From contig MWCD01000001.1 of NCBI GenBank assembly GCA_002069885.1, forward strand, positions 67,795 to 131,794: DNA of 64,000 bases, read 5' to 3'. A model generated the notes under the pieces. The model saw nothing but the letters and a program-made list of their open reading frames with translations, ran no database searches and was not told the DNA's origin. Source of the stretch: a bacterium ADurb.Bin236. Lineage in GTDB: Bacteria; UBP15; UBA6099. The position numbers and the translations under genes were made by a program. Shown here in pieces: positions 4,756 to 63,365 of the stretch; the first letter of the stretch is position 1; the number at the start of each line of letters is the position of its first letter.

Positions 4756-4763
4756 GAATTGCG

Positions 4764-17095: not shown

Positions 17096-17204
17096 ATAAA
17101 ATACACCCTAACCGGCGCTAATTTCCATAAAATGTTTAATCTTTGAACCGCAATATGAGACAACGCATGTCGAATCGAACCCGCGTGTTTTTTATCAATG
17201 CGAC

Positions 17205-20885: not shown

Positions 20886-20904
20886 CACTCTGGAGAACGC
20901 GAAC

Positions 20905-22943: not shown

Positions 22944-23016
22944 TTCTCAATCTTTCAATAGGATACTGATTCATGCCTGTAATCCAACGTTGGTAAAACA
23001 GCAGGGTAAAACCGAT

Positions 23017-23634
23017 TTAGATTTCGTTATTGGGAACGGGTTTGGACATTTTGAGCCAGCGGCCGCAGTTGAAGAAGCGTTTGAGGTTTTCGGAATCGCG
23101 GGTCTTTTCTATCTTGTATCCCAGTTTATGGTACAGACTGATTGCGGGAGCGTTTTCGGCGGACACCCACAGAGAGATAGATTTCATGGATTTTTCCCCG
23201 GCGTATCTTTCCGCGCGCGCGAGCAAGGCCGCGGCGATGCCGCGGCGATGGAATTTGGGGGCGACGGCGAGTTGGGAGACGCACGCCTCGTCCCGCTCCA
23301 GCGACTGGCCGAGCAGAGACAACATGTAAAGCGCTTTCATTCCCCTGCCCGTCCCTAACCTGTCGAGGTAATTCTCTGCGACGGCGTCGCTGGGGGCGCA
23401 ACCGAAATCGAGTCCGACGACTTCAACGCTGCCGGCTATCTCGCCGTCCATAAGAGCGACAAAGAGGTTTGAATCCGCTCCCCTCCATTCCATTTCGGCG
23501 GCGATAATTTCCTCCGCTGTCCTGATGTCGTCGCACATCGCCTTGTATTTGTCTGAGAATGCGGTCGCGAGCAACTTTGCCAGTTCGCGACCGTCGCGGT
23601 CGCGTTTTTCGACTATTTCCGTTCGGGATGCCAT
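23017..23634 (-). CDS. GNAT-family N-acetyltransferase
   Basis: The acetyl-CoA binding motif HRRGIAAALLARAERYA...LGYKIEK is present. Confidence 0.75.
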   Translation of the reverse strand: MASRTEIVEKRDRDGRELAKLLATAFSDKYKAMCDDIRTAEEIIAAEMEWRGADSNLFVALMDGEIAGSVEVVGLDFGCAPSDAVAENYLDRLGTGRGMKALYMLSLLGQSLERDEACVSQLAVAPKFHRRGIAAALLARAERYAGEKSMKSISLWVSAENAPAISLYHKLGYKIEKTRDSENLKRFFNCGRWLKMSKPVPNNEI

Positions 23635-23670
23635 AGATGATTGGAGAGGCGGAGCAAAAAAAAGGAAAGG

Positions 23671-24507
23671 TTAATCCCAGCCGCCGACTTTCTGCGCCCA
23701 GAAGCGAGCGCGGCGTTCGCGCGGCCCGCCGTCAGGTCCGATTAGTATGTCCCGCCTGTCTTCGGCAAGCGCCTGAAACTTGGCGGGGTTTTCTATCTTG
23801 AGTTTATCGAAAAGTTCTCTGACGATATTGCTGACATCCCTTTCGGAGATGCGGTATACGGATTTGAAGATGCCCGGATGCAGGTTGCCGTATGTTCTAG
23901 GCTCGTTGGGACTGTCCATGCCGCATTCGCTGTGGCTTCGCGGCCCTTCGTCGGGCACTGAGATGAACGCGAAAAGTTTGGGCAGATATTTTTCTCTGAA
24001 CCGCGCATAAGCGGGCAGGTTCAGGACGTGACCGAAAGTTGGCGCGTTTTCCGGAATATACTCTGCGGCGGTCATGCCCGACTCAAGCAGTTTTGCTTTG
24101 GCTTCTTCGTCCTCGGAGTAATACTCGAACAGCATCGGCACGAAGTTGGTGTGGCTTGTCAGGTCGGAAATGGCGTGAGACGACCTGCCTAGAATCCTGT
24201 ACATCGACTCAAGCTTTCCGGGCGGGTGTTTTTTGTCGTCCGCAATTTCCATTATCAGGTCGCGGTGCATGCGCCAGTTTTCGATGATTTTCTCAGGCTC
24301 CTGCCAGTGGTCGAAATGGTCGAGTTCCTGATACCATCTGCGGGCGAACGGATATAGAGGAAAAACTTTCCAGTTTAGAGCCTTCCATCCGATGACGCCG
24401 TAGAAGTCCGTGTTGAAGTTATACCTTGCGACGGTGTCGATGGCCGCCGGAGACAGATGGTCTCTAAAAGCCGTTTTAACTATGGACAGATGATAAAGAG
24501 TGTTCAT
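23671..24507 (-). CDS. Hypothetical protein
   Basis: The ORF is open, but I recognised no family. Several His/Asp-rich blocks (HFDHW, HTNFVP) are present. The start is uncertain (ATG at 24507, or upstream at 24615). Confidence 0.4.
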   Translation of the reverse strand: MNTLYHLSIVKTAFRDHLSPAAIDTVARYNFNTDFYGVIGWKALNWKVFPLYPFARRWYQELDHFDHWQEPEKIIENWRMHRDLIMEIADDKKHPPGKLESMYRILGRSSHAISDLTSHTNFVPMLFEYYSEDEEAKAKLLESGMTAAEYIPENAPTFGHVLNLPAYARFREKYLPKLFAFISVPDEGPRSHSECGMDSPNEPRTYGNLHPGIFKSVYRISERDVSNIVRELFDKLKIENPAKFQALAEDRRDILIGPDGGPRERRARFWAQKVGGWD

Positions 24508-24660
24508 GTGGCGGATATCCTGACCCGATATTAGCCGGGGCCGCTGTGGAAGAAAAGCTAGCGGCGCGCGCGCCTTATTAATATTCAATATAGCGCCCCG
24601 GAGGCCGGAGGTCAAAAAAGAGTTTTCTTTTTAATCTTTATTGCGTCATTGTTTTGAGGT

Positions 24661-25260
24661 CTAGCCGGGGCCGCCGTCTGAAGCCATTGTCCTAGCAATT
24701 TCGAGGTCTTCCGGATTGTTCACGTTGAAGACGAATCTGCGCCACGAATCTTCATCGAGGCCGAGGTCGGCGGCGGATATCCAGCGAATTCTCAGTTCTT
24801 CAATGCAGGCCATTATTTTGAAGACGCCGCGGCTTATTCCGCGCTCAATCGCGTCGCGCGCCGCGATAGAGTATGAAGACAAGAGTGGCTGAGGTCCTTC
24901 TTTAGAAAAAACAATTCCGGCGTCCGAGTCTTTCGAAAGGTCGAAAACGCGGGCGAGTGTGGCTCCATCTATAAAAGGTGTGTCGCAGGGGGCGACTTGG
25001 TATTGTTCTCTAGGAAAAGCGTTCATAACGGAGAGCAAACCGCCAGCAGGCCCTTGTCCGGGGGTATCGTCCGCAATGGCGGCAAGCCCTAGCCGGGAGT
25101 AGCGTTCCGGCTCGTTGGTCGAGAGAATGATTTCCGGGAAGTAAGGAGAAAGCTTTTCTATTATGTCGTCAATAATCGGGCGGCCGTTGAGTTCCAAGCG
25201 GGTTTTATCCGCGCCCATGCGGGAGCTTTTCCCGCCCATGAGAAGTATTAGGGTTCTCAT
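24661..25260 (-). CDS. mobA: Molybdenum cofactor guanylyltransferase
   Basis: The MobA N-terminal motif LILLMGGKSSRMGADK is present. The ATG overlaps the stop of the upstream mcsAB-like gene. Confidence 0.75.
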   Translation of the reverse strand: MRTLILLMGGKSSRMGADKTRLELNGRPIIDDIIEKLSPYFPEIILSTNEPERYSRLGLAAIADDTPGQGPAGGLLSVMNAFPREQYQVAPCDTPFIDGATLARVFDLSKDSDAGIVFSKEGPQPLLSSYSIAARDAIERGISRGVFKIMACIEELRIRWISAADLGLDEDSWRRFVFNVNNPEDLEIARTMASDGGPG

Positions 25261-26933
25261 CTGCGGGAGCGCGACCTCCCCGCGCCCCTTCCGTTTGCGA
25301 TTTCGGAGTCTTTCGAATACAGCCATGCGTCCACGATTTCCGCAAATAGGTCCGCGCGGCGGGCCTCGCATTCGTTGATGCTGCTCGTTTTTCCGTCCGC
25401 TAGCATTATTCCGGCGGACGACATGGCGGGCAAAACATCGGAAACGGCGAACGCGGGCATCTCGACCAATCCTCTATCCAGAGCGAGGGAAAAGAGCGAA
25501 ACAAACCTGAGGGCGTCATGATATGAAAGCCTGTGCGCGCGTTTGGCGTTGTGTATGACGCGCGGAATGGCGCGATACATCCTGTTTTCGTCGTCGGGCG
25601 AGAAGGCGTCTCGCAACTCCCCTTCTCTCTGAATAAGTCGCGCGGCGAAATCACCTGTCGAAACGGCTATCTCTTCGGCGGTCTGGCCGAATCCGACGAG
25701 AGCCGACACAAGATAGAAGCCGTGATGTTCGAGGTTGGAGCCTCTGAAGGGTTCGACTTTCACGGAATAGCGCTCCGCTCTGTCCGGCCAAAAGAATGTG
25801 TCGCCGCTCAGAAAACTGTAAGGCAGATGCAACAGGATGGACGCCGAAGCTCCCGACCCGATATATTTCGGCGAGGCCGCAAGATAACCGAACCTCGGAG
25901 AGAACGCCGGTTCGGCGTTCTTTTCCATTCCCTCGACAGCCTTAAGAGCCTTTGCCATCAGAGCTGCGGCGTCCGCGCCGGCAGCGCCGGACTGGAACGC
26001 GCTCACCGAAAGATGATCAATGTCGTTTATCAGCGCCGACATTGAGCCGTCGCGATTTATGAGGGCAGAAGAACGAGGTTCAGGCCGCCTCATGAAAAAA
26101 CGTTCGCCGAGGGCGAGCCTCTCAATCGCGGACAGAAGCTTCATATCTATTCTTGAAGAAGCTGAAATAAAGCCCTTGGGCAGAAGCGAAACGGCTAGAA
26201 GCTCGACAAGCTCGCGCCTTGAGGGCGAAAGCCTGCCGGGAAAATTGAAACCGGAGAAATTGCGTCTGAGTTCGACGCGGCTCCATACTATTCCCGTATC
26301 GTTGGAAGACGGCGAGCAACCGCCGCCGGAGTTAATTGCCGATTTTGCGGAAGCGTCGAGCTTCAGCGCAGCCGGGAACCCCTGCGCGGCCCTTTTCGAC
26401 GCATCTATCCGGGATTTCGCGCGGCATTCTACTTTCTTTTCCAGCTTCAGAAGGGCTTCCTTATGTTTCCCAGCGGACGCATAGTCTTCCGTCCTGATTT
26501 CTTCTTCTATTCTGTTTTTCAGTTTCAGGAGTTTCGAACGCTCAGAGTAAGCCGCCGGGGACGGCCCTCTGTAAAACGACACGCCATCGGCGAGCGAGCA
26601 ACCAAGCAAAGAAAGATAACCGGTAAGCATCGAGCCGAAAACGGAAGCGCATTCCGGGCAACCGAGCCTGAAACCGCGTTCGAATTCCCGGAGTTTGGTT
26701 CCGCAAGCTCTGCAACTGTCCGCAAACTCAACCGGCAAATCGTAGCAGGAGAGAGTCTGGGAGAGGTCGTCCGCGCCGCCAAGACCTCTTATCTGGGACT
26801 CGACGCGCCTGAGAGCGGCCAGCATCCCCACGGATTCCGCGCATTCCGCGCAGAAACCCACTCGCGGGCTTTCCTGTCTTCCCCAAGACAGGAAGTAATC
26901 AGCTTTGTTTTCACCGCATTTCGAGCACTTCAT
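25257..26933 (-). CDS. mcsB: Fused McsA-McsB: an N-terminal McsA-like Zn-finger/UVR module joined to a protein arginine kinase (ATP:guanido phosphotransferase) domain
   Basis: The N-terminus has CxxC pairs (CSKCGEN..CAECA..CRACG..CPEC) and a UVR-like helix (LKNRIEEEIRTEDYASAGKHKEALLKLE). The C-terminal blocks VWSRVELRRNFSGFNFP, INDIDHLSVSAF and GYLAASPKYIGSGASASILLHLP align with Bacillus subtilis McsB as I recall it. Confidence 0.7.
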   Translation of the reverse strand: MKCSKCGENKADYFLSWGRQESPRVGFCAECAESVGMLAALRRVESQIRGLGGADDLSQTLSCYDLPVEFADSCRACGTKLREFERGFRLGCPECASVFGSMLTGYLSLLGCSLADGVSFYRGPSPAAYSERSKLLKLKNRIEEEIRTEDYASAGKHKEALLKLEKKVECRAKSRIDASKRAAQGFPAALKLDASAKSAINSGGGCSPSSNDTGIVWSRVELRRNFSGFNFPGRLSPSRRELVELLAVSLLPKGFISASSRIDMKLLSAIERLALGERFFMRRPEPRSSALINRDGSMSALINDIDHLSVSAFQSGAAGADAAALMAKALKAVEGMEKNAEPAFSPRFGYLAASPKYIGSGASASILLHLPYSFLSGDTFFWPDRAERYSVKVEPFRGSNLEHHGFYLVSALVGFGQTAEEIAVSTGDFAARLIQREGELRDAFSPDDENRMYRAIPRVIHNAKRAHRLSYHDALRFVSLFSLALDRGLVEMPAFAVSDVLPAMSSAGIMLADGKTSSINECEARRADLFAEIVDAWLYSKDSEIANGRGAGRSRSRR

Positions 26934-27088
26934 CGAAATCTCCGCTGCGGCTGGAACCGCTCAAACTTTAATATACCCGTTTTTCAGTATACGAGACTGA
27001 GCGCGCGCATTCAATCTGAAAGTGAAATGAAATACAGCCTAAAATGTATGTCCACTTAATAAATGTTATTGATCGCGCTGCGGCGAAG

Positions 27089-28343: not shown

Positions 28344-28370
28344 TCAAGATTTTTCCGGGAACGCCGATAT
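28344..28370 (+). promoter_or_regulatory. Sigma-28 (FliA)-like promoter: TCAAGATT-N11-GCCGATAT
   Basis: It matches the E. coli sigma-28 consensus TAAAGTTT-N11-GCCGATAA at 6/8 and 7/8 positions, with the correct 11-nt spacer. It lies about 95 nt upstream of the 60-aa ORF. Confidence 0.5.
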
Positions 28371-41852: not shown

Positions 41853-42212
41853 TCAGGGGATATTTTCGACATTGTCATAAATCTTGAAAATGCTTCTAAA
41901 ATTCAGCATGTCGAATAGTTGGAGAATAGCGGGAGCGGCCCCGGCAATAAACATCTCCCCGCCTCGCGACCTCACGTATTTCAATGCCGCCACAAGCGAA
42001 CCGAGGCTTACGCTGTCGATAATCTGAATGTTGGACATATCTATCACTGCGTCGCCGGAGTGATCTATCAATGAATCCTTCACGGCGTTGAGAAAGCCTC
42101 TGTTGTTGTTGTGGGTTATCTCGTTGACTAGGGGTGTGATGACGATAGCGCCGCCGCTGAGGCGCGTCTCAACATCCATGTTGTCTTGTTTCTCGATCAT
42201 GCGGCTCCTCAA
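41853..42212 (-). CDS. STAS-domain anti-sigma-factor antagonist
   Basis: The motif IIDSVSLGSLVAAL (the conserved phosphorylatable Ser of the SpoIIAA/RsbV family) is present. Confidence 0.7.
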   Translation of the reverse strand: MRSRMIEKQDNMDVETRLSGGAIVITPLVNEITHNNNRGFLNAVKDSLIDHSGDAVIDMSNIQIIDSVSLGSLVAALKYVRSRGGEMFIAGAAPAILQLFDMLNFRSIFKIYDNVENIP

Positions 42213-42412
42213 GCATACGAGTCGAATCTGGAAAAACGTTGAATGCTATCCGTGCGCGCAGTCCACGGCCCCTGCTCGATGAGCGGCCGCCTATTTTCAT
42301 CAATCGATTTGAATGCCTCGGCCATGACCCTGAGCCATGTCGCGCTCTTATAAAGTCCGCCGGCCATCCATGTTATCTGCGCCGCGCTTCCTCCGCCTTC
42401 AATCGCTGACAT
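42209..42412 (-). CDS. Small hypothetical protein (67 aa)
   Basis: It overlaps the upstream STAS gene by 14 nt and the downstream STAS gene by 4 nt, a pattern typical of translational coupling. I found no recognisable motif. Confidence 0.3.
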   Translation of the reverse strand: MSAIEGGGSAAQITWMAGGLYKSATWLRVMAEAFKSIDENRRPLIEQGPWTARTDSIQRFSRFDSYA

Positions 42413-42767
42413 CGGCTTCCTCCCTTTCTCTGAACCATGCTACAGCGCTTTCCACGCTATTGAAAACTTTTATCACTTTATTCAGATGCAACGCGCCGAA
42501 CAACTCGTTGATTTTCGGGTCTTTAATCACCACTACCATGTCGCCGCCCAAACGGCGCGCGAACAATAGCAGCGGCGCGAGCATTCCTAGCGCCAAACTG
42601 TCCATGAACTTCACTCGTGAAAGGTCTAAACAAATATTGCAGTTATAATCGCTGAATGAGCTTCTAACCTTGGCGAAAGTTTCCTCATAATTCGTAAACT
42701 GTATGACCTCCACCAGAACGGTGACGACCCTCGTTTGTTCTATGTCTTTAACAAGAGTGTATATCAT
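42399..42767 (-). CDS. STAS-domain anti-sigma-factor antagonist
   Basis: The motif KFMDSLALGML is present. Length is 122 aa. Confidence 0.7.
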   Translation of the reverse strand: MIYTLVKDIEQTRVVTVLVEVIQFTNYEETFAKVRSSFSDYNCNICLDLSRVKFMDSLALGMLAPLLLFARRLGGDMVVVIKDPKINELFGALHLNKVIKVFNSVESAVAWFREREEADVSD

Positions 42768-45201: not shown

Positions 45202-45534
45202 TTATATTCTCATCAGAGCCTCTTCCTTATTCGAAAATATCCTGTATTGTTCATCTATATGAAGCCGGGCGAGAGTGTTTCTTACATCCGCAGGCACGGC
45301 GGCCAACGCGATTTTTCTGTCGTTAAACTTCTGTTTCACATTTAATAAAAAGGCCGCTCCTTTGCTGTCAATGAACGTCAATCCGGCCATGTCTATTATC
45401 ACAGGCAGGTTGTTTCCGCTTTTGACCTCGTCTATGGCGAATATAAGGGCTTCGAGGTATTCGCCGACCATCTCCCCTGTCAGTTTTATCATGTTGTTGT
45501 TATCAATCATCGCAGAATCAACCGTTAATTTCAT
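45202..45534 (-). CDS. STAS-domain anti-sigma-factor antagonist
   Basis: The motif FIDSKGAAFLL is present. A GGGGTG RBS lies upstream. It sits immediately downstream of the flagellin-family gene and its terminator. Confidence 0.7.
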   Translation of the reverse strand: MKLTVDSAMIDNNNMIKLTGEMVGEYLEALIFAIDEVKSGNNLPVIIDMAGLTFIDSKGAAFLLNVKQKFNDRKIALAAVPADVRNTLARLHIDEQYRIFSNKEEALMRI

Positions 45535-45649
45535 AAACTTCACCCCTTTTCGTCATATATCCCTAGTTTCTTTTTACCCTGTTTTATATAGTTTAATCTG
45601 GATTTTTGGATAATGCCGGGTTGCAGTGGCCGCTTGAATGAACTCAAAC

Positions 45650-45690
45650 CAAAAACCCGGCCTTGCGGGCCGGGCTTTTGTGTTTTCGTT
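45650..45690. terminator. Bidirectional intrinsic terminator
   Basis: A 7-bp GC stem (CCCGGCC..GGCCGGG, 45656..45674) is flanked by an A-run upstream and a T-run downstream, so it reads as a terminator on both strands. Confidence 0.65.
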
Positions 45691-45735
45691 TGTAATATAT
45701 TCGCCGGATCTCTGCTTTCGCGGTCCGGATGCTTG

Positions 45736-46746
45736 CTATCTATCCGATGCGACTCCCGAATAACCGACCATCTTCTGTCCTTCCAATCCATCATATATGG
45801 CGTCAAGCAAGGGGACGGCTATCAAGGGCTGAGCGTTGGCTTGGCTGGCGATCATAGTAGCGCCCTGCTGCTTAATCATGTTCTTGGTATACTCGAATAT
45901 CTCGTTGGCGAAATCCGCGTCTTCGATGCGCGAGTTCGAAGCCGAGACGTTGATGTACTGTGTGTTCAGATCGTTAATTGTTTTGTCCAGCCGTTCGTGC
46001 AGGATGCCGACCTGCACGCGCACCGCGTTCATCTTCTCCATCATGCCGTCCACCCTATCAAGCATAGCGTCGGCATATCCGAGATAGTAGTTGTAGCCAG
46101 CGTCGCCGAAAGGAGGCGGCGGCGCGTACGGAGTGTTAAACCCTACGAATTCGGCCGCTAGGTTGTCAATTACGATTTGAATCTGATTTGCGGCTGAATT
46201 GTTTGGGCCGACCTGAGAAGCTTGTCCGGTCTCGAAACCGTTGCCCAAACTGTCGTCGCCGAAAATTGTTTTAAGATTGAAGTTGAACCTCGCTGTGTGG
46301 ATAGGCGCGCTCGGATCGAGCTGATTATGAAACGCTCTGTAAACATGATCCTGTAATTTTTCGATTTCTTTAGTGAGGGACCAGCAGTCGCTCATGCTGG
46401 GCACAGACGCCGGGTCAGTATTGGGGTTGACGTTGTTCACCGCCATGTTGGCGAGTTTTAGAGTCAGGTTTCGCATCTCGTACAGAACGTCCCATTGATC
46501 CGAAACATAGTGGTCGGTCAGATCCAACAGATACTGGGTGTCCTGAGCGTTGCCGATAGCGACGCTTACGCCTCGCATCTGAGCCTTCATGCCTGATGAA
46601 ATCGCCATGCCGGACGGATCGTCCGAAGCATAGTTGATTTTCAATCCGGATGAGAGCCGAGTGGTTTTTTCGGTAAATTCCAGTTGATTGAGTCTGGAGT
46701 AATTCTGTGACGTGAGCGCATAGATATTGGTGTTGACCGATATCAT
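45736..46746 (-). CDS. Flagellin-family protein (336 aa) with a C-terminal extension
   Basis: The N-terminus RLSSGLKINYASDDPSGMAISSG and the C-terminus SRIEDADFANEIFEYTKNMIKQQGATMIASQANAQP match flagellin. About 30 extra residues follow the usual flagellin C-terminus. A GGAGG RBS is present. Confidence 0.75.
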   Translation of the reverse strand: MISVNTNIYALTSQNYSRLNQLEFTEKTTRLSSGLKINYASDDPSGMAISSGMKAQMRGVSVAIGNAQDTQYLLDLTDHYVSDQWDVLYEMRNLTLKLANMAVNNVNPNTDPASVPSMSDCWSLTKEIEKLQDHVYRAFHNQLDPSAPIHTARFNFNLKTIFGDDSLGNGFETGQASQVGPNNSAANQIQIVIDNLAAEFVGFNTPYAPPPPFGDAGYNYYLGYADAMLDRVDGMMEKMNAVRVQVGILHERLDKTINDLNTQYINVSASNSRIEDADFANEIFEYTKNMIKQQGATMIASQANAQPLIAVPLLDAIYDGLEGQKMVGYSGVASDR

Positions 46747-46901
46747 TTCGCTACCTCCATGTATTTTACTGCCGCTGCGGGAAAAATCCTTTTTTCCCGT
46801 TTGCCCCGGAACCGCCGTCTAACTTAACCCGCCCCGGTATGCCCTGAAAGCGCCTTGAGATATACTTCGCCAACATGTCCGGCGCTTTCGCTACTGTTAA
46901 T

Positions 46902-46928
46902 AAATCGGCCTTGCGGCGAAAAACTTTA
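46902..46928 (-). promoter_or_regulatory. Sigma-28 (FliA) promoter: TAAAGTTT-N11-GCCGATTT
   Basis: The -35 element is a perfect consensus, the -10 matches 6/8, and the spacer is 11 nt. It lies about 155 nt upstream of the flagellin-family start. Confidence 0.6.
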
Positions 46929-53898: not shown

Positions 53899-55212
53899 TC
53901 AGTGGTCGGGGTAATAGCCCGTTACGCCCGTTGAAGACACTACTCCGGGAACGGAACCTGTAAAGTTAATCTTCTTGATCAAAGGAGACAAGCCTGAGTT
54001 GTCCGCGAAAACAATCGAATTCCCCGCCGCGTTCCATTTAGGCGCAAGATAAATCTGGTCTGACGAAACGACAGCCGGATTTGAAGAAATGGAACTCATC
54101 ACAAAAAGGTCGGAGCAAGTGTCGCCGACGGGAGGGACCTGCCCGCCGCCGGGGGCCGCGCATTCGTGGTCGAACTGAAAAATGACTTTGCCGTTCGGCT
54201 CGATGTCAGGATTTTTCGCGGAGCATTGACCATCGCCTGCGTCGCAAACGGGAGCTCCTGCGCCTGACGGATTATAAAGAAGCGAGGCCGCGCCAAGAGG
54301 ATTCACCGTGATTTTCCAGAGGTTCGAGTTCGACGCCGAGCCTGCTCCGCCGTCAACCGCGCGGTAAGACGAATATACGAGAGCGTTGTTTCCGGGCTGC
54401 CAAGCGGGAGCCTCGTCTCTCGCGGAGTGAGTCGTTATTCTTGTGACGCTTCCGCCGGTCGAAGTCATAGTGTAGATGTCGTACTGGCCCGGAGCGTCGG
54501 ATGAGTAAGCGATTTTCGCCGCGTCGTGGCTCCATGAAAGACCGCTGTATCTAACGTCTGTTCCGGAAGCCAGCGTGGTCAGAGTTTCAACATTTGAAAC
54601 GCAAGCGGCCTTTGCGATGCTTTGATTGCCAGCTCCGTCGTCGCGGACGAAAATCACCTGTTTGCCGACTGGAGAGAGCGCGGCGTACGAGTGAGCTCTG
54701 CCGGGAAGGTCTTCGCAAATCCTGCGGGCTGTGGCAGAGTTGGACGGGTTGGCCGCAAAAACCCTGTTGTAGCCTGACACCGGGTCGGCGGCGATGTACA
54801 CCATATCGCCTGCGGCGATGTCGCATATATTGCAACTTAATGGGTTCTGATAGTTCACGGTTCGAGCTACGGTTTTTGTGTTTCCGGAGCGAGTTGCGAC
54901 CACTGTTATGGTCGAGGTGGACGAGATGTCCACGTTTGCTCTGCTGAAAGTTCCATTGGCCGCGACTGTGACGGCGACATTGTTTACTTTTACCGTTGCG
55001 TTTGAGTTCGTGCTGCCTGAGACGGTTATTCTATCTACGTAGTATGTTTGGCCGTCATATAGAGGGCTGTCGACGGTGAGGAAAAAAGTCGGGTCTGTGG
55101 GAGTGGAGGCCCCACCTCCTCCGCCCCCGCCTCCACAGCCTGAAACGGCCCATGCGGAGACAATCATCATAAGAGCGAGGACAACCCGCGATGCCGCTGT
55201 TTGATTTTTCAT
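53899..55212 (-). CDS. PD40/TolB-like beta-propeller lipoprotein with a poly-Gly linker
   Basis: The lipobox AVSGC is followed by GGGGGGGG. PD40-like repeats (KIAYSSDAPGQYDIYTM, NALVYSSY) are present. The start overlaps the kdsA stop. Confidence 0.6.
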   Translation of the reverse strand: MKNQTAASRVVLALMMIVSAWAVSGCGGGGGGGGASTPTDPTFFLTVDSPLYDGQTYYVDRITVSGSTNSNATVKVNNVAVTVAANGTFSRANVDISSTSTITVVATRSGNTKTVARTVNYQNPLSCNICDIAAGDMVYIAADPVSGYNRVFAANPSNSATARRICEDLPGRAHSYAALSPVGKQVIFVRDDGAGNQSIAKAACVSNVETLTTLASGTDVRYSGLSWSHDAAKIAYSSDAPGQYDIYTMTSTGGSVTRITTHSARDEAPAWQPGNNALVYSSYRAVDGGAGSASNSNLWKITVNPLGAASLLYNPSGAGAPVCDAGDGQCSAKNPDIEPNGKVIFQFDHECAAPGGGQVPPVGDTCSDLFVMSSISSNPAVVSSDQIYLAPKWNAAGNSIVFADNSGLSPLIKKINFTGSVPGVVSSTGVTGYYPDH

Positions 55213-56039
55213 ATCATGTCCTGCTTTTTCACCATCGCGTCCAGCGCTTTCGCGTGAAGCAACAGGTTTTTAAGATTTTTCAACGGAACCATATTCTGGC
55301 CGTCCGAAAGAGCCTCGTCAGGCTCGTGGTGAGTTTCGAGGAAAAGCGCGTCCACGCCGACCGCCATGCAAGCGCGGACCAGAGGATCGACGAACTCGCG
55401 TTGTCCGCCGCTGGAAGTGCCGGCCCCGCCGGGCAACTGCACGCTGTGCGTGGCGTCGAAACAGACCGGATATCCGAACCGTCTGATTATAGGCAGCGAC
55501 TTGAAGTCCACCACAAGATTGTTGTAGCCGAATGTGGAGCCGCGCTCTGTTATAATTATTTTATCATTTCCGGCGCTGAGGCATTTGTCGATTATGTTGC
55601 GAACGTCCCATGGAGCAAGGAACTGGCCTTTCTTGATGTTGACCGGTTTGCCTGTCTTGGCAGAGCCGACGACAAGGTCGGTCTGTCTGCAAAGAAAAGC
55701 GGGTATCTGGATGATATCGATGAAAGGAGCAATCTCGTCGACTTCCTCCAACGAGTGGGCGTCCGTGGTTACAGGCAGTCCAAGGTCGCGTTTGACTTTT
55801 GCGAATAGTTTTTTGCCAGATTTGATGCCGAGTCCCCTGAAGGAGGAGCCGGACGACCTGTTTGCCTTGTCGTATGACACCTTGAATACGAGCGGCACGC
55901 CGATTTCGCCGCAGATGCTCTTCAGCTCCTTCGCGATGGAGAAACAGCTATCCTCGCTTTCGAGGACGCAAGGCCCGGCGATTAGAACAAAAGGCGCGCC
56001 CCCGCCTATGGGGATGCCGCTTATGTCGAATCCAGTCAT
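55209..56039 (-). CDS. kdsA: 2-dehydro-3-deoxyphosphooctonate aldolase (KDO-8-phosphate synthase)
   Basis: The N-terminus FVLIAGPCVLES is present, and the overall KdsA similarity is clear. Confidence 0.85.
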   Translation of the reverse strand: MTGFDISGIPIGGGAPFVLIAGPCVLESEDSCFSIAKELKSICGEIGVPLVFKVSYDKANRSSGSSFRGLGIKSGKKLFAKVKRDLGLPVTTDAHSLEEVDEIAPFIDIIQIPAFLCRQTDLVVGSAKTGKPVNIKKGQFLAPWDVRNIIDKCLSAGNDKIIITERGSTFGYNNLVVDFKSLPIIRRFGYPVCFDATHSVQLPGGAGTSSGGQREFVDPLVRACMAVGVDALFLETHHEPDEALSDGQNMVPLKNLKNLLLHAKALDAMVKKQDMI

Positions 56040-56085
56040 CAGATGTTATCCCCGCCCGCCGCTGTAACCGCGACGATAGTAAATA

Positions 56086-57207
56086 TTATAGCGCTCCGGC
56101 CCCGCCCGCAGTATCCCGTCGCAAATTCAGGATGTCTTCGACATGCCGCGAACCGGACGCGATATCGACGTCGATAAGCAATTTGATCCATGCGCGCCTC
56201 GGTTTGAAATGGCCGGGCAGGCGCACGGCGTCTTTTTCAGTGGTCACGATCCAGTCGGCCCCGGCTCTCGCCGCCGCGTCTTCCACCCGCTCCAAATCCG
56301 CGTCTCCATATGGATGATGGTCCGTGAATCTATATGCGATGACCGCCTCGCCAGTAACGTTTGCCACCGTTCTTTCAAACTGTTCGGGATTTCCAAGCCC
56401 GCTCACCGCCAGAGCGCGCGTCCCTCTAAGACTGTCTATGCCGGGCGATTCGCCCTCCCCTATCCTTTTCGCTCCGGATATTTTATAGACGGATTCGACG
56501 ATAGGCGTTCCGGGAAACATGCGGGAGAGAGCGTCGCGGGTCTGCGCTGTTTTTTCCGCGCCCGCCGCGTCTATCCGGGTCATCCAGAACAATGTTGCCC
56601 GTTTTAACTCGGTCAGAGGCTCTCTGAGCAAACCTGCTGGGAAAAGTTTTCCGAACCCGAAAGGGTTGCAGGCGTCGATCACGGCGATGTCGGCGTCTCT
56701 GGCCAGCGTAACAAACTGAAAGCCGTCGTCGAGAACAATCGAGCCGCAAGAAAAACGGTCGATAAGAGAGCGCGCGCCGCGCGCGCGGTCAATGTCAACC
56801 GCGACCGGCCTGCCGTCCTCGAGGTATAAAATCGGCTCGTCTCCGCAACTGTGCCATGATAGCGCGTCGGCGCGGGATGAAAGAATGATAGAGCCTGAGC
56901 CTTCCCTTCCGTAGCCGCGAGTCGCTATGCCGGGATTCATTCCTCTTTCGGCAAAACCGGAGGCGAGCATCCTGCAGATAGGAGTCTTGCCCGTGCCGCC
57001 GAGGGTAATGTTTCCAACGCTGACCACCGGAACATCGAGTTTGAGCGCCGGAGCGGCGGAAAGTTTTTTCATCCTAGCGGCGTGAGCGACGCGGTAAAAC
57101 TCGGACATAGCAAACATGCCGGCGCGGCAAACAGCCGCCGCCGCGCCTTTCTTTTCGCCGGACATTATGGGATATAGTTTGGAACCGCTCCGGGAGTCTA
57201 TTATCAT
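56086..57207 (-). CDS. lpxK: Tetraacyldisaccharide 4'-kinase
   Basis: The P-loop VPVVSVGNITLGGTGKTP is present. Confidence 0.8.
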   Translation of the reverse strand: MIIDSRSGSKLYPIMSGEKKGAAAAVCRAGMFAMSEFYRVAHAARMKKLSAAPALKLDVPVVSVGNITLGGTGKTPICRMLASGFAERGMNPGIATRGYGREGSGSIILSSRADALSWHSCGDEPILYLEDGRPVAVDIDRARGARSLIDRFSCGSIVLDDGFQFVTLARDADIAVIDACNPFGFGKLFPAGLLREPLTELKRATLFWMTRIDAAGAEKTAQTRDALSRMFPGTPIVESVYKISGAKRIGEGESPGIDSLRGTRALAVSGLGNPEQFERTVANVTGEAVIAYRFTDHHPYGDADLERVEDAAARAGADWIVTTEKDAVRLPGHFKPRRAWIKLLIDVDIASGSRHVEDILNLRRDTAGGAGAL

Positions 57208-58550
57208 AGGGAGGATTCCTTAAAGATGCGGTGGGCGCGCTCGGTCGCGCCCGCGTTCCGCATAATTACTTTTAATGCGTTTGAGTCTACGCGTGCCCTC
57301 GCCTCTTCGTCGTCGAGAAACTCAGACAGCCGAGCGAACAAATCTTCAGAGTCCTTGACCATCACGCCGCCGCCGCCCGCTTCGAGGGCGCGGGCGCTGG
57401 CGATGAAGTTCATCATGTGCGGACCATAGAAAGCCGCCTTGCCGCAAGCGGCGGGTTCGAGTATGTTGTGTCCGCCCCGTTCCACCAGACTTCCGCCCAC
57501 GAAACACAGAGTTGAGAGACCGTATGCCAGCCTCAACTCTCCTATGGTGTCCATAACCACCACTGATGGAGTTGAGACGACGCCAGCCGAAGCCAGCGAT
57601 GAGCGCAGCTTTGCGTCCGGAAACGAGGCCTGCGCCAGATCAAGAACAACCGCCGCGCGCTCAATGTGCCGCGGCGCCAGAAGAAGCCTCAACTCCGGCC
57701 GTTTCCTCCTCAGACGCGAGAATACGTCGAGTATCATCTCCTCTTCGCCGGGGTGCGTGCTTCCCGCAGTGAAAACAGGGCCGCCGCCGGGATTGAGGAG
57801 CGCCTTCAGTTCTGCCGTCTTTTCGGCGTCGGGAGCGTCGGGAGAGGCGTCGAATTTCATGTTGCCGACGACATGCGTTTTCGCCGCCGGAGCGCCCAGC
57901 CGGATAATCCTCCCGGCGTCCTCTTCCGTCTGCATACCCAGAGCGCGCATCGCGCTGAAAACACTTGAGTAAACTGTTTTCACCATCGCTCCCGCCGAAG
58001 CCATCCTGTCCGACACGCGGCCGTTTAAGAGGATCACCGGAGCGCCGCGCCGCGCGACCGCCGTCGTGAGGTTCGGCCATATCTCTGTTTCCATGAGAAT
58101 CAGCGAGGAAGGCCTGAACGCTTTCAAAGCGCGCCTGACGACCCACGGAAAATCGAACGGGAAATATGCCGCGGTGATGGAACCGCCGAAAGAACTCTCA
58201 AGTATGTTCATGCCGCCTTTGGTGGCTGTGGTGACCACTATCGACGCGTCTTTTTCCCTATCAAGCAGCAACCTTATGAACTTTGTTGCGCCGACGGCCT
58301 CGCCTACGGAAACAGCGTGAACCCAAATCACGCGCTCGCCCGATTTGCGGCGCTTGACGGCGGGATATCTGCCGAATCGCTCCTGCATAGTTCCCGTGAA
58401 CTTCTCGGAGCGCGCTCCCTGCCATAAAAAATAAAGCCGCAGAAAAGGATATGCGGCTATCAGAACCGCGTTGTAGATAATGAGCACAAACAAAAGAACG
58501 CTCTCCTGAACGGTCGCCGCTTCCAGCCCGCCGTTCGTTAAAAAAACCAC
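57204..58550 (-). CDS. waaA: 3-deoxy-D-manno-octulosonic acid (Kdo) transferase
   Basis: The blocks IWVHAVSVGE and FVGGSLVERGGHN(I/P)LEPAA are present. The true start may be an internal GTG near 58502. Confidence 0.8.
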   Translation of the reverse strand: MVFLTNGGLEAATVQESVLLFVLIIYNAVLIAAYPFLRLYFLWQGARSEKFTGTMQERFGRYPAVKRRKSGERVIWVHAVSVGEAVGATKFIRLLLDREKDASIVVTTATKGGMNILESSFGGSITAAYFPFDFPWVVRRALKAFRPSSLILMETEIWPNLTTAVARRGAPVILLNGRVSDRMASAGAMVKTVYSSVFSAMRALGMQTEEDAGRIIRLGAPAAKTHVVGNMKFDASPDAPDAEKTAELKALLNPGGGPVFTAGSTHPGEEEMILDVFSRLRRKRPELRLLLAPRHIERAAVVLDLAQASFPDAKLRSSLASAGVVSTPSVVVMDTIGELRLAYGLSTLCFVGGSLVERGGHNILEPAACGKAAFYGPHMMNFIASARALEAGGGGVMVKDSEDLFARLSEFLDDEEARARVDSNALKVIMRNAGATERAHRIFKESSL

Positions 58551-58656: not shown

Positions 58657-60114
58657 TCAAAACTTCAAGTTGTACACGACGACATCGTCCGTTTTCCCCT
58701 TTAGTTTGACGCGGCGGCTGGGGCCGAATTGAAAATGTTCTTTTAGTTTCTGATAGACGGTTTCTCCGACAAGGACGCCCTCGCGGCTCGACGACGATAG
58801 AGACTTTATGCGCGAAGTCAGATTCACGGTGTCGCCTATGACGGTGTATTCCATACGCCTGATGCTGCCAATGTTGCCTGCGACGACATTGCCGGAATTG
58901 ACGCCGATGGCCACATTGAATTCCGGCAGCCCGCGCTCCGCCCATACGCGATTGAGCGCGGCCAATCCGTCGCGCAGCCTGATAGCGCATTCGACAGCTT
59001 TTCTTTCGCCGTCCGGGTCGGGCAGCGGCGCGCCCCAGTACGCCATTATGTTGTCTCCGATGAACTTGTCGATTGTTCCGTCCAGTTCGAAAATCGAGTC
59101 CATCGCCATTGAGAAATATTCGCTGAGCATATCCAGAAGAAGAGCGGCGTCCATGCTCTTTGACAACTCGCGGAAATTGACGACTTCGGCAAAAAACACT
59201 GTCACCCAAGCGCTGCTGCCTCCGAGGTCAAGCTTGTCAGGGTCCTTTAGAATCTGTTCAGCGACGCGTTTTGAGACGTAAGAAGAAAATGTGTCCAGAA
59301 TCCTCTCTCTGTTTATTTCATGATTGATGGTGGTTTTCAAAAGTTCGGCGTGTTCTATAGAGCTTTCCATCGCCCTTTTTATGGAGGACAGATAAGAAAC
59401 CATGTCTGCGCCGAATCTTTCCGCGGAACTGTCGGCGACGGCAATTACGCCTTTTACCGAGCCGCTCCAGATGAGAGGGAATACTGATAGGAAATCTAAC
59501 TGTGCGCTTTGGTCGGAAGGGCCGCAGTATTCGAGGCGGGGGTCGCTGTGGGTGAAGCGACTGACGAAAAGTCGGCCTGACCTTGCGACTTCATAAAATA
59601 GGTGGTCTGAAGGAAGAGGCTCGGCAGACAATTCGCCGCGAGGCCGCAGTTGCCCGAGTTCGTCGAACAGAAAAACATCAGCGCTCGCCGCGCTCGCTCT
59701 ATGGGCGAAGTTATCTTCTAGCGCAGCCAACAACGAGTCTTCGTCAGGGTTGTCCTGAAACTTTTTCATCGCGTCGATGATGCCCGCGACGTTTTCCCTG
59801 CTCTCTTTTATCGTTTTGAGGATGTGGCCGAGATAAACGCCGGCTCCCATTAGAGCGAAAGAGGCAAATACGAAATTTGTTCCGGACCTCGTCGCTCTCG
59901 AATACTGAAGTATGAAAAAAGGAGACAGGCTCAGCAACAAGATTAAAGAAGTCAGAATAGAGCCGGTTCTTCTGAAGTAAAGTCCTGAGAGAGCGACAGG
60001 GACTACCACCAGCGGGCGCGCCCACTCTTCCATCGGAAAGTTGAACCACGTGGTAAATGCGATTATGGACAACGCCGCCAGCGACGTTGCCGCGACCAGC
60101 CCGACTCGTTTCAT
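58657..60114 (-). CDS. Membrane-anchored GAF-domain class III adenylate/guanylate cyclase
   Basis: About four N-terminal TM helices are followed by a GAF-like region and a cyclase homology domain (KFIGDNIMAYWGAP). Its ATG overlaps the upstream stop. Confidence 0.7.
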   Translation of the reverse strand: MKRVGLVAATSLAALSIIAFTTWFNFPMEEWARPLVVVPVALSGLYFRRTGSILTSLILLLSLSPFFILQYSRATRSGTNFVFASFALMGAGVYLGHILKTIKESRENVAGIIDAMKKFQDNPDEDSLLAALEDNFAHRASAASADVFLFDELGQLRPRGELSAEPLPSDHLFYEVARSGRLFVSRFTHSDPRLEYCGPSDQSAQLDFLSVFPLIWSGSVKGVIAVADSSAERFGADMVSYLSSIKRAMESSIEHAELLKTTINHEINRERILDTFSSYVSKRVAEQILKDPDKLDLGGSSAWVTVFFAEVVNFRELSKSMDAALLLDMLSEYFSMAMDSIFELDGTIDKFIGDNIMAYWGAPLPDPDGERKAVECAIRLRDGLAALNRVWAERGLPEFNVAIGVNSGNVVAGNIGSIRRMEYTVIGDTVNLTSRIKSLSSSSREGVLVGETVYQKLKEHFQFGPSRRVKLKGKTDDVVVYNLKF

Positions 60115-61001
60115 ATTATTCCCGCCATAAGCAAAACTTCGTTCATAGCCGACATAACAAAACACACCGCAAACGATGTGCGCATCCTCTTAAAAGTCAG
60201 GCTCATAACAAGAGTCATAAGGAGCGCCTCCGCTATGAATCCTCCTATAATTGACTGTATCGGGATTGTTCCGAGGAAAGAAAAAAAGGCGAAGTAAGGA
60301 AGGTGCACGGCTGAAATCATCGTCAGCAGAATAACGGTCGTTCCGACAGTTGTCAGCCCTCTTTCGTCTTGTCTGTTCCAGACTGCGTAAATGAAACTGA
60401 ACAGAATCAGCGCCTGTGACCACATAACGGCAAAATGAGGGGCGACTTTCCAGAAATCAAAACTCACCGGAAATCCCCAGTTTGAGACGAAGATGACAGT
60501 GTACGCAAGAACAACGCATCCAGCCAACGCGGATTTGGCAATGTCGGCAGTCATTCTGCCTTTTCGCATCCCGAATTTTGCCATAAGCCCGGGTTCGGAC
60601 ACGGCAAGATAAAAAACCGCCCAACAAGCGAACGCCGGATAAAAAACATACATTTTCGGAGTGTCGTAGAAAAAGTATTCCCACGACTGAAAACCGGGCA
60701 TGCTGATTAGAATCAATACCGCGCGCCGGAGATTCAACGCGCCGAAAACCGCCAGCCCGCCGATAAAGATTATCAAATGCAGCGCGACCGCATAGCAGTC
60801 GGAAACCTGTCTTTCAAACAATCCTGCTTTATGCATAAAAACCATGAATCCTGAAACGCATCCGTAAGCGAAAAGCAGAATAATAGCGCGGATGAAAACA
60901 GGGTCGCTGAACGACCTGAACTTTTCGCGTTCAAGAGAAGCGTCTTCCTTTAGTCGCAATTCAGAGAATGTTTTTTCAAGTTCAGCCGAGCCTAAGCTCA
61001 T
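60111..61001 (-). CDS. Polytopic integral membrane protein of unknown function
   Basis: There are about 8 predicted TM segments. I recognised no motif. Confidence 0.5.
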   Translation of the reverse strand: MSLGSAELEKTFSELRLKEDASLEREKFRSFSDPVFIRAIILLFAYGCVSGFMVFMHKAGLFERQVSDCYAVALHLIIFIGGLAVFGALNLRRAVLILISMPGFQSWEYFFYDTPKMYVFYPAFACWAVFYLAVSEPGLMAKFGMRKGRMTADIAKSALAGCVVLAYTVIFVSNWGFPVSFDFWKVAPHFAVMWSQALILFSFIYAVWNRQDERGLTTVGTTVILLTMISAVHLPYFAFFSFLGTIPIQSIIGGFIAEALLMTLVMSLTFKRMRTSFAVCFVMSAMNEVLLMAGII

Positions 61002-61011: not shown

Positions 61012-61854
61012 TCAATAGACCAGCGATTTATAAAACATGTAATAGAGCAGATATGACAAAAAAACCATCCTTGTGGAACGGCAGAAATAGAAAGCCATAG
61101 TAAGAGTCACTTGTGTGAGCAGGCAGGCGGCGAGTGAGCCGATGAAAGCCGTCACCGGGTCTTTGCTTCCGATTACGTTCGGAGCCCACATTGAAAAGAC
61201 GAAGAGCGTGTTGATTAGCACAGGAACGGAAAGCTCAAATCTGCGATCCAACAACGCGCGGGTAAACAAACCGTAGATTATCCCGAAAACGGGGCCGTAA
61301 ACCGCGATATTAACTGCCAGATAGAAAACAAACTGTGCGGGCGAAGGGAAGGAGACCGAGGCTCCTCGCGCTTTGCTTATGAAAAAATATGTCACTGTTA
61401 TAAATACAGCCGCAGTCAATAAGGAGAAAGCGGCTTCTTTCTTCAAGTCGGAAGCAGCCGCATATCCGAGAGACGAGAGCGTTTTGGGGGCGGATTTTAT
61501 CAAGGCCGCCAGCGACAGGAAAGCAGGGAACGCAAACACCAGAAACGAAGGCGCAATAAAAATGCTCCCTGCTATCGCAAATACGGCAAAACCCGCAAAA
61601 ACAATAAACCTGAACCAAGCCGCAAGAGACATTCCGCCTGCGGATGCTAGAGCCGCTGGAAAAGCGATAAACAAAAAAACCATTGCCCCCGTAGCTTCTC
61701 TAGCCTGCTCTTCATAAAAAGCAAAAACAATAGCCGAAGCGAAAAAAGCCGCCGCAAAGACTGACGCCGATATGCGGAACGTCGGCTCAGTAAATAGAGA
61801 CATCTTCTGGAAACCGTTGTAATAAGCTTCCGTTTTTCTGTAATAGTAATTCAT
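61012..61854 (-). CDS. Polytopic integral membrane protein of unknown function
   Basis: The protein is highly hydrophobic and 280 aa long. Its start overlaps the stop of the second cyclase. Confidence 0.5.
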   Translation of the reverse strand: MNYYYRKTEAYYNGFQKMSLFTEPTFRISASVFAAAFFASAIVFAFYEEQAREATGAMVFLFIAFPAALASAGGMSLAAWFRFIVFAGFAVFAIAGSIFIAPSFLVFAFPAFLSLAALIKSAPKTLSSLGYAAASDLKKEAAFSLLTAAVFITVTYFFISKARGASVSFPSPAQFVFYLAVNIAVYGPVFGIIYGLFTRALLDRRFELSVPVLINTLFVFSMWAPNVIGSKDPVTAFIGSLAACLLTQVTLTMAFYFCRSTRMVFLSYLLYYMFYKSLVY

Positions 61855-63365
61855 AGCCGCATGCCTTTTATTACAAACAATTCGTCGTCGCGCGCGGCGA
61901 CGGTTTCGTCTATTCTCTCTATGTCAAACTTGTCCGATATCAAATCAGCGGTCTGGCGGGTAACCAGCAGTTTCTCGCCGTGCCGTTTGGTGAGGGATTC
62001 CGTCCGCATAGCCTTGTCGACCTCTTCGCCGATTATGGTGAACATGGTTTTTCTGTTGTCGCCGACGTTGCCGACGAGCGCCTCTGCGGTATGCACGCCC
62101 ACTCCTGTCCTAAAGGTCTCCTTTCCTTCAGAAGCCCATTTTGCGTTCAGGCCTTCGACCGCCGCAAGGATGTCGAGAGCGGCGAGAGCGGCGTTTTCGG
62201 CGTGTCTTTCATCAGGCGCCGGGGCGCCCCAGTACGCCACCACGCAATCGCCTATGTATTTGTCGATAGCGCCGTTTCGGTTAAACACCACATCGACAAT
62301 GACGGTGAAATATTCGTTCAGTCTGCGGACAAGCTCCTGAGGGGATATCCTCTCGGAGATTGTCGTAAAATCCCTGATGTCAGTAATTAGAATCGAAATC
62401 AACTGGCGGCGGCTTTTCAGCAAATCCGGGTTCGATAGCATGTGCTCGGCGACGGACGACGAAACGAATCTTGAAAACAACTCTTTGGATCTTTTTTCGC
62501 GAGCCAACTCTTCTTGCCTTCTTCGCTCCTGACCGATGTTCGCCACGACCGCCGCGGCGGCGTCCGCAGCCAGTTGTATGAGGGACGCGTCCTCTTCGTC
62601 GAAATCCACGCCGTCGCTTTTGTTTATAAGCGCCACTGCGCCTGTCACGCCGTTCTTGGAGCGCATAGGGGCGGCCAGCATTGATTTGATCCCTGAGTCG
62701 CCGCTCGGAATAAACCTTTCATCCGCGTCCGCCGAACTGCATGAAAACAATTTGTTTTCCGAGGCGCATCTCATAAGAGGATGCGTTTCGTCAAAGGTCG
62801 GCAAATCAGCGAAACCGGTTTCGATACGATATAAAACAGGCGGAATGGACGAAACTTCCAAATCAGCGGATGGATTCAGAACAACCGCCACAGCCTCCGC
62901 GCCTGTGAGCCTGACCGTCTGCTCGGCCAGCCGCATCATCACATCCCTCTCCGTGGTCGAGCCTCCTATAGTCAGCATCGCTTCCGAAGCTGTCTCTGCG
63001 TCTTTATTGGCTTTTCGTCCTCTGCCTACCGCCCACCCTGAAAACACGCCGAGGAGATTCAAAAACACGAGCATTGGGATAATGACCAACACGCCCACCG
63101 CGCTGTCGACGTGAAACGGCTCGACCGGCGCGTATAAAAGATATAAAACGGTCACGATTATCCCTGTCGCGATGCCGCCCTTGAGGCCGAACCCGCTGCC
63201 GGCTTGATAGATTGGAAAAAGAAGAAAGAACTTTATATAATCGCGTCCGCTCCACCCAACTGCCAGAGCGGAGAACATTACGGCGAAACAAACCGCGATT
63301 TCAATCAATATCAAAGCCCAAAGCTTGCTTTCTTTGCGCCTTGTCGCCGCGATGTCGCTATTCAA
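61851..63365 (-). CDS. Membrane-anchored GAF-domain class III adenylate/guanylate cyclase (paralog)
   Basis: N-terminal TM helices are followed by GAF and a cyclase domain (KYIGDCVVAYWGAP). The apparent start is a TTG at 63365. Confidence 0.7.
   Translation of the reverse strand: MNSDIAATRRKESKLWALILIEIAVCFAVMFSALAVGWSGRDYIKFFLLFPIYQAGSGFGLKGGIATGIIVTVLYLLYAPVEPFHVDSAVGVLVIIPMLVFLNLLGVFSGWAVGRGRKANKDAETASEAMLTIGGSTTERDVMMRLAEQTVRLTGAEAVAVVLNPSADLEVSSIPPVLYRIETGFADLPTFDETHPLMRCASENKLFSCSSADADERFIPSGDSGIKSMLAAPMRSKNGVTGAVALINKSDGVDFDEEDASLIQLAADAAAAVVANIGQERRRQEELAREKRSKELFSRFVSSSVAEHMLSNPDLLKSRRQLISILITDIRDFTTISERISPQELVRRLNEYFTVIVDVVFNRNGAIDKYIGDCVVAYWGAPAPDERHAENAALAALDILAAVEGLNAKWASEGKETFRTGVGVHTAEALVGNVGDNRKTMFTIIGEEVDKAMRTESLTKRHGEKLLVTRQTADLISDKFDIERIDETVAARDDELFVIKGMRL

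Follow-up and report, generated by a model that had tools for sequence, protein, structure and literature searches.

Does the second flagellin-family gene of this locus encode an ordinary filament subunit, and if so, what is the meaning of a product that runs on past the point where flagellins normally stop? The locus lies in a 64,000-nucleotide (nt) stretch, here called the window, of contig MWCD01000001.1 from bacterium ADurb.Bin236, an uncultured organism of anaerobic digesters. The gene is on the minus strand and codes for 336 amino acids (aa); its features are collected, in window positions unless another locus is named, in Table 1. The C-terminal end of a flagellin belongs to D0, the innermost part of the filament, which forms the inner tube around the channel that each new subunit travels. 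D0 is held by the chaperone FliS before export, and the length of its end is nearly invariant in bacteria and in all solved structures. We consider it likely that the gene specifies a filament-type flagellin, made from a sigma-28 single-gene unit with a CsrA-type leader and bearing an addition at the C-terminus that is specific to the lineage. Gene and regulation are otherwise ordinary; the only unusual feature is this conserved tail of about 21 aa.

That the protein belongs to the flagellin family, as the initial annotation had it, is clear from its domains. The two terminal flagellin domains of Pfam are matched well above threshold (PF00669, 69.8 bits against a cutoff of 26.6, E 3.1e-19; PF00700, 65.3 bits against 23, E 6.3e-18), the second over model positions 1-81 of 86. 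Flagellin models also come out on top in NCBIfam (up to 123 bits), phmmer matches 58 flagellin chains of the Protein Data Bank (PDB), and the product is 100% identical to P0001, deposited as 'MAG: Flagellin [bacterium ADurb.Bin236]' (MAG, metagenome-assembled genome). Structure prediction, by which the initial annotation could have been refuted, shows the long helices of D0/D1: the AF2 model, built with 60 homologs (predicted local distance difference test score, pLDDT, 72.9), has helices at residues 8-32, 44-99, 120-139 and 218-305 and a short beta-containing middle. In a Foldseek search of the PDB with this model, flagellin chains fill ranks 1-39 (best E 4.9e-11); almost every one of them was solved as part of a filament, and the top matches are the filament subunits of Shewanella, B. 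subtilis, Leptospira and Kurthia, at E of about 1e-10.

The closest comparison is with the solved short D0/D1 flagellins: B. subtilis Hag (5wjt, 5wjv), Kurthia flagellin (6t17), Shewanella FlaA (9oxj) and Leptospira FlaB (9lrz). They share both Pfam domains and the same long-helix architecture with the window protein and are of a similar size class (270-304 aa there, 336 aa here), at Foldseek E of 5e-11 to 4e-10, phmmer E of about 1e-26, template modelling (TM) scores of 0.62-0.68 and 24-28% identity. The window protein differs from them in its 21-22 extra C-terminal residues, of which the solved chains have none, and in a Pro-rich TPYxPPxPxG middle and a conserved Asp-Cys of its own. The Pro-rich motif is at residues 205-214 (46105..46134), in the short variable region, and the Asp-Cys pair is D121-C122 (46383..46388). 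Both are conserved in the family, and there are several Trp residues too. Cys and Trp are unusual in flagellins.

Membership in the family does not by itself make the protein a filament subunit. It could be a FlgL-like hook-filament junction protein, a role suggested earlier, or, like FlaC of C. jejuni, a flagellin-like protein that is secreted and not polymerised. FlgL (HAP3) is of the same superfamily and has the N- and C-terminal helical segments in common; the window sequence is divergent (about 30-36% identity to canonical flagellins), scores under every NCBIfam flagellin equivalog cutoff, ends in a non-canonical C-terminus, has a conserved Cys, and its gene stands alone, apart from flagellar genes. 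The FlgL models, however, score far lower than the flagellin models: TIGR02550 reaches 55.5 bits against its cutoff of 127.2, and other FlgL models give E of 1.5e-10 and 0.006. The FlgL structure (9go6_S) comes 40th in the fold search, with E 4.3e-6 and 12% identity, as against 5e-11 for the filament flagellins. Also, flgL usually lies beside flgK, which is not the case for this gene, and flagellin genes commonly stand alone. The protein keeps the D1 signature motifs and D0 segments at both termini, and the sigma-28 promoter and CsrA-type leader described below are the control set of major filament flagellins in the cases studied. A non-filament role is thus very improbable, and the suggestion of FlgL is abandoned. 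Judged by its domains and fold, the gene is that of a genuine filament-type flagellin, which would polymerise into the filament; indirect signs of this, and of a flagellar export apparatus, are the second flagellin of the window and MotA/MotB near one ortholog.

Where, then, does the ordinary flagellin end? The canonical C-terminus reads QANxxPQxVLxLL plus 0-2 residues. We compared the window protein with 210 flagellins that our searches returned from outside its family. In 189 of these, 14-15 residues lie between the last Q[AVS]N and the C-terminus, as against 35 in the window protein; at least 20 residues past the motif were found in 9 (about 4%). All 58 solved PDB chains align to query residue 313-314 and stop 1-2 residues on, without a counterpart of the extension. 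A tblastn scan of a genome collection with the ortholog alignment gave matches that, among those listed, nearly all stop at query residue 314; these were distant canonical flagellins only, with no true orthologs among the matches listed, the patterns being too general. Since other flagellins and all solved chains end there, the extension is taken to start at 315 and comprises residues 315-336 (DAIYDGLEGQKMVGYSGVASDR), whereas a typical flagellin has 0-3 residues past the terminal LL of D0. An extension of about 30 aa had been claimed. It is real but shorter, 21-22 aa: the earlier count of 29 aa came from placing the cut after QANAQP, and the canonical end lies 8-9 residues past that point.

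An unusual terminus in a single assembly could simply be an artefact, be it a misassembly, a shift of frame or the loss of a stop codon. Nothing was found that speaks for this. The same protein is found on five contigs of independent sources, and orthologs from other samples keep the extension in frame. In ten orthologs (326-341 aa, identity 38-88%) the end reads PLI..LL.AIYDGL plus a tail; P0010 is the one that departs, ending LLKAI. Among 11 orthologs, A316 and I317 never vary, and conservation of Y318 and G320 reaches at least 90%, on par with the canonical D0 helix. The codons tell the same story. The window gene and its ortholog at L093 differ at 98 of their 336 codons, with 40 of the differences non-synonymous, and within the 22 codons of the extension there are three differences, two synonymous and one conservative. 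In another subclade, the tail N(E/Q)RM(A/V)FN(S/A)HVGPT is kept despite synonymous differences. Because the orthologs keep the extension in frame with synonymous changes, a frameshift or assembly error is ruled out, and we give an artefact of any kind practically no chance. Conservation in orthologs, on which the initial annotation had made the extension depend, is in this way borne out.

The trait is not confined to these orthologs. A profile search over 1.84 billion representatives gave roughly 38,000 flagellin hits. About 25 more clusters (at 50% identity) belong to the family, and many of these end LLxA(I/V)(Y/F)xG(L/M/V) plus about 6-23 residues; sister groups have ..SAGL(D/G).. tails. 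The nearest canonical-ended relatives appear in this search at E of about 1e-58. The extension is a genuine, family-defining flagellin variant, probably a short helix and a flexible tail. The model has a helix at 310-322 and is disordered from residue 323 on; its pLDDT drops below 50 over residues 320-336. I317, Y318 and L321 carry on the hydrophobic spacing of the last D0 helix, and the Gly-Leu looks like a helix cap.

Tails occur on other flagellins of this lineage as well. The window's only other flagellin gene encodes a giant protein with a middle region of about 740 aa that matches PD40 beta-propeller and bacterial TSP3 repeats, and with a C-terminal tail of 17-18 aa (..ALDLLSQHGVNPGLKTAEELAAV). 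On L090, the contig of one ortholog, there is a second flagellin-family gene, very divergent and similar to P0141, whose C-terminus is again long and non-canonical (..LEYLSVLPINNNGAGVSLDIEKTSK); no sigma-28 motif was found for it under the relaxed pattern described below. As both flagellins of the window and both on L090 are tailed, the trait seems to be lineage-wide, and the tail sequences may be paralog-specific. Other environmental tailed flagellins (P0206, P0224, P0250 and P0187, besides the 983-aa protein of the window) likewise have 10-20 residues past the canonical LL. They differ from the studied family in that their tail sequences are unrelated (e.g., ..LLSQHGVNPGLKTAEELAAV), AIYDGL being specific to the family. 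The tail on the window's other flagellin, and the conserved pair of hairpins of CsrA-target type considered below, had not been noticed in the initial annotation.

What might the extension do? Its 22 residues have a volume of about 2820 cubic angstroms, and the channel provides about 1480-2300 cubic angstroms per subunit (assuming a width of 20-25 angstroms and a rise of 4.7 angstroms; PMC8306008). The export channel is therefore too small to take the tails of all subunits. The conserved residues extend the hydrophobic stripe of D0, and C-terminal processing is not known in bacterial flagellins; for these reasons we favour, as a tentative choice, an extension that stays on the assembled subunit and plays a structural role. 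The seven residues of DAIYDGL would add about two turns to the hydrophobic stripe on the last D0 helix, up to the Gly-Leu, and through this helical part the subunit would gain hydrophobic contacts with the D0 segments next to it in the inner tube. The 15 or so flexible residues that follow would find their place in the space that separates the inner from the outer tube, and not in the export channel. Several points weigh against such a role. A tail that is kept takes up space, which none of the solved filaments is known to offer. The genome's second flagellin has a tail of different sequence, which argues against one shared structural socket. Around the helix at 310-322, the model itself is of low confidence (pLDDT about 54).

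The same facts can be read otherwise. The extension may act before assembly, as an additional handle for FliS or the export gate FlhA (e.g., in ranking the protein against its giant paralog), or it may be a pro-peptide that is clipped, in the course of export or later, to leave a canonical mature core. FliS wraps the whole C-terminal D0 segment mainly by hydrophobic contacts (PMC6070490), and FlhA-C also touches D0-C (PMC8306008). The conserved I317, Y318 and L321 are hydrophobic, as such contacts are; the extension is too large for the export channel on every subunit; and two flagellins with different tails in one genome are what paralog-specific recognition would predict. Yet the hydrophobic periodicity merely continues the D0 helix, as a coiled-coil contact would, no C-terminal processing of a bacterial flagellin is known (a literature search for flagellin C-terminal extensions in filaments gave none, nor anything else relevant), and no protease site or partner gene is conserved beside the gene. 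We regard this alternative as possible though rather unlikely. More doubtful still is a bolder proposal that takes the whole lineage into account. If all its flagellins are tailed, and the tails are too bulky for the channel, a bulky tail on each flagellin would mean a core built unlike that of any solved filament, with the D0 helix and the tail between the inner and outer tubes or partly lining the channel; alternatively, these would be the first C-terminal pro-protein flagellins. In any case, the tailed family amounts to a natural experiment on what the filament core and the export pathway tolerate, and it could expose a new core arrangement or a new processing step.

In contrast to its product's terminus, the expression of the gene appears to follow the usual pattern. 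The sigma-28 (FliA/SigD)-type promoter claimed earlier is present where it had been placed, on the minus strand, and agrees with the enterobacterial/Bacillus consensus, TAAAGTTT-N11-GCCGATAA, at 14 of 16 positions. Matches to this consensus with two or fewer mismatches number two in the 64-kb window, where 0.04 are expected, and none of 100 shuffled sequences gave two. The other match, with one mismatch, lies 5' of the giant flagellin gene. Each of the two precedes one of the two flagellin genes, and the site at 46902..46928 is a putative class III flagellar promoter. A third sigma-28-like match, at 28344..28370 on the plus strand and about 550 nt 5' of a GH4 glycosidase gene, has three mismatches and was rejected as a chance match (0.73 expected).

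For a comparison between genomes, the loci of seven orthologs were fetched with their flanking sequence. The motif CTAAAGTTTT-N10/11-(G/C/T)CCGAT occurs upstream of six of the seven, 138-242 nt 5' of the ATG, and in its relaxed form it occurs eight times in 136.6 kb, every time just upstream of a flagellin gene. The six loci that keep the promoter motif also have the ribosome site GGAGGTAG (GGAGGTA). The genes around the orthologs are unrelated from locus to locus: VTT-domain and acetyltransferase genes in one, genes of unknown function and ClpB in another, then glycosidase with a sigma-54 activator, and AttH with CstA. MotA/MotB genes are found 4.5 kb from one ortholog. At the locus of the most divergent ortholog (P0011, L094), neither the promoter motif nor the leader hairpins were found, so the conservation is not family-wide.

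The unit ends in a strong intrinsic terminator. Its hairpin (45680..45650) has 13 pairs, eight of them G-C, is followed by UUUUUGGUUUG, starts 56 nt past the stop codon, and has a folding energy of about -29 kcal/mol. A hairpin of the form ACCCGGCC...GGCCGGGUUU lies about 50-85 nt past the stop in all six ortholog loci for which downstream sequence is at hand. The terminator had been described as both strong and bidirectional. The strength holds, and the hairpin is symmetric, with a terminator-like site called on the plus strand too; but no plus-strand gene was seen to end at it, which leaves bidirectionality without an obvious use. Between the stop and the terminator (45690..45735), as in the 3' untranslated regions (UTRs) of L001, L007, L090 and L092, there are an extra GC-rich hairpin and an A-rich stretch, present in most orthologs. 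The two together may be a second conserved element of the 3' UTR.

As promoter, Shine-Dalgarno sequence and terminator are kept across six loci with unrelated neighbours, we take the stand-alone unit to be real. The comparison gives good support to the monocistronic sigma-28 unit proposed earlier, that is, to a conserved single gene of the late flagellar class. It should be said on the other side that no terminator lies in the interval from 46996 to 46928, so that read-through from the upstream alcohol dehydrogenase gene is possible, and that the start site, the efficiency of the terminator and the sigma factor are all inferred from the sequence.

The leader is where regulation beyond transcription may be sought. 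The 155-nt leader, the GGAGG ribosome-binding site and the 336-aa open reading frame (ORF) were all found as first annotated. The real 5' UTR is probably 147-149 nt, if the promoter is used as predicted; ortholog leaders are about 111-214 nt long. The ATG at 46746 comes 7 nt after the GGAGG (46758..46754). Two hairpins, SL1 and SL2, make up the final 55 nt of the leader and are its only conserved ones; hairpins further 5' are not kept. SL1 is found in the minimum-free-energy and centroid folds alike and has GGA (46789..46787) in its loop, and SL2 displays the Shine-Dalgarno sequence in its loop. In the alignment of seven loci, both partners change in six of eight SL1 pairs and in three of seven SL2 pairs; the cells paired amount to 94.6% in SL1 and 79.6% in SL2. 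For the two together, 9 of 15 pairs change on both sides and 87.6% of cells are paired, as against 34-49% in slid-register controls; none of 500 shuffles reaches the observed covariation score, percentage of cells paired or either count of both-side changes. The loop GGA is invariant in SL1 and in SL2 at all seven loci, while the stems differ.

This is the layout of a CsrA target. The segment AUACAUGGAGGU at SL2 agrees at 10 of 12 positions with RUACARGGAUGU, the CsrA consensus from SELEX (systematic evolution of ligands by exponential enrichment). The closest known parallels are the flaA mRNA of C. jejuni and hag of B. subtilis, which are controlled in the same way. The C. jejuni flaA gene has a sigma-28 promoter and a leader with two stem-loops bearing ANGGA loops, the second over the ribosome site; CsrA represses the mRNA, and FliW antagonises CsrA (PMC4894983). 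The two GGAs are 21 nt apart there, and 18 nt is optimal for a CsrA dimer (PMC4894983). The window gene has in common with flaA and hag a sigma-28-type promoter, a single-gene unit, and two loop GGAs with the second over the ribosome site, here with compensatory changes. It differs from flaA in having a longer leader (about 150 nt, as against 45 nt) and a wider GGA spacing (about 28 nt, as against 21), and it has additional non-conserved hairpins 5' of the conserved pair.

By analogy with these cases, we infer CsrA-type translational control of the flagellin mRNA, for which the organism would need CsrA and FliW. The gene would be transcribed from the sigma-28 (FliA/SigD)-type promoter, as its consensus match and conservation suggest. 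The two leader hairpins would bind a CsrA dimer, blocking the ribosome until flagellin export frees FliW, the antagonist of CsrA, and the strong intrinsic terminator would end the transcript before the next gene. Some observations pull the other way. Taken whole, the leader does not fold more stably than shuffled sequence does (z -0.87). The stem of SL2 has 3 bp at the window locus, as against 4-7 bp in orthologs. A Pfam scan of 31 window ORFs (about 26 kb, with the ORFs in 1..27000, lay outside it) and some 70 kb of non-redundant sequence flanking the orthologs showed no csrA, fliW, fliS or fliA.

The hairpins could instead stabilise the mRNA, occlude the ribosome site by structure alone, or bind some other protein. 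The missing csrA and fliW among the genes just described would fit this, as would the unplaced lineage, whose SecA is just 53% identical to that of any named organism, and Rfam, which has no family for the two-hairpin leader and none at gathering score anywhere in the window. The invariant loop GGA combined with varying stems, however, indicates recognition of the loop rather than mere stable structure, and two GGAs with a spacing of about 28 nt fit a CsrA dimer. Moreover, a covariance model of the two-hairpin element gave weak matches just 5' of the flagellin genes of Bdellovibrionota, Bacillota, Actinomycetota and Nitrospinales (Pseudobdellovibrio, at 34 bits, Bdellovibrio, Pelosinus, Domibacillus, Patulibacter and a Nitrospinales MAG), and CsrA-FliW is known in the phyla where such elements matched. 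Hairpins unconnected with CsrA are therefore an unlikely explanation. From these matches across phyla, the two-hairpin GGA design seems to be widespread among flagellin mRNAs. A sigma-28 consensus promoter and a two-hairpin GGA leader are thus kept in a lineage without cultured relatives, which supports the view that the control scheme is ancient and widespread.

The leader of the giant flagellin gene (313 nt) is far more stable than shuffled sequence (z -4.9). It contains a UUUCAC/AAGGAU/GUGAAA hairpin (38388..38371), and the gene's own Shine-Dalgarno sequence lies in a hexaloop.

Table 1. Positions of the flagellin gene, its control elements and related features (window positions unless a locus is named)
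Feature	Position	Strand	Description
Sigma-28 (FliA/SigD)-type promoter	46902..46928	-	TAAAGTTT 46928..46921, 11-nt spacer, GCCGATTT 46909..46902
5' leader	46747..46901	-	155 nt, from -10 end to ATG
SL1	46778..46799	-	CGGGAAAAA / AGGA / UUUUUCCCG
SL2	46752..46763	-	UAC / AUGGAG / GUA; GGAGG in hexaloop
Flagellin coding sequence	45736..46746	-	336 aa + stop (45738..45736)
Flagellin_N (PF00669), N-terminal D0/D1	46441..46737	-	codons 4-102
Flagellin_C (PF00700), C-terminal D1/D0	45820..46062	-	codons 229-309
Predicted helix continuation DAIYDGL	45784..45804	-	codons 315-321; prolongs C-terminal D0 helix, ends Gly-Leu
Predicted flexible tail EGQKMVGYSGVASDR	45739..45783	-	codons 322-336; weak shared motif (K/R)-(M/L)-(V/A)-x-x-x-x-(V/I)
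Intrinsic terminator	45640..45680	-	GC-rich hairpin of 13 bp + U-tract, A-rich run before
Giant flagellin	35218..38169	-	983 aa; promoter 38483..38509, leader 38170..38482
Second flagellin-family gene of L090	L090 12970..13950	-	326 aa
Covariance-model matches	L058 9934..9997, 11030..11083; L042 9925..9964; L084 47..91		
Covariance-model matches, continued	L031 9931..9997; L079 9932..9997; L072 9867..9921		

The genes around the flagellin gene code for an iron alcohol dehydrogenase, a GH84 N-acetylglucosaminidase, a STAS protein and a GlgC-like nucleotidyltransferase, and apart from the two flagellin genes no flagellar gene was seen among the Pfam-scanned ORFs of the window. Three small STAS-domain genes of the anti-sigma-factor-antagonist type lie within 4 kb on the minus strand (41853..42212, 42399..42767 and 45202..45543), one of them directly downstream of the flagellin terminator; no kinase or phosphatase that could partner them was identified. 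Further along are two genes for adenylate/guanylate cyclase domain proteins (58657..60165 and 61851..63365, minus strand), one with a GAF domain; between them are two ORFs without a Pfam match. The gene directly downstream of the giant flagellin gene encodes SecA, which has a few relatives at 58-66% identity and then about 53% to Bacillota, too little to be diagnostic. NCBI places the organism among unclassified Bacteria, and the one paper found that mentions this bin is about SepRS. Finally, genes for KdsA, LpxK and Kdo transferase are found at 55209..58550 on the minus strand, from which it follows that lipopolysaccharide is made and that the organism has an outer membrane, i.e., is a diderm.

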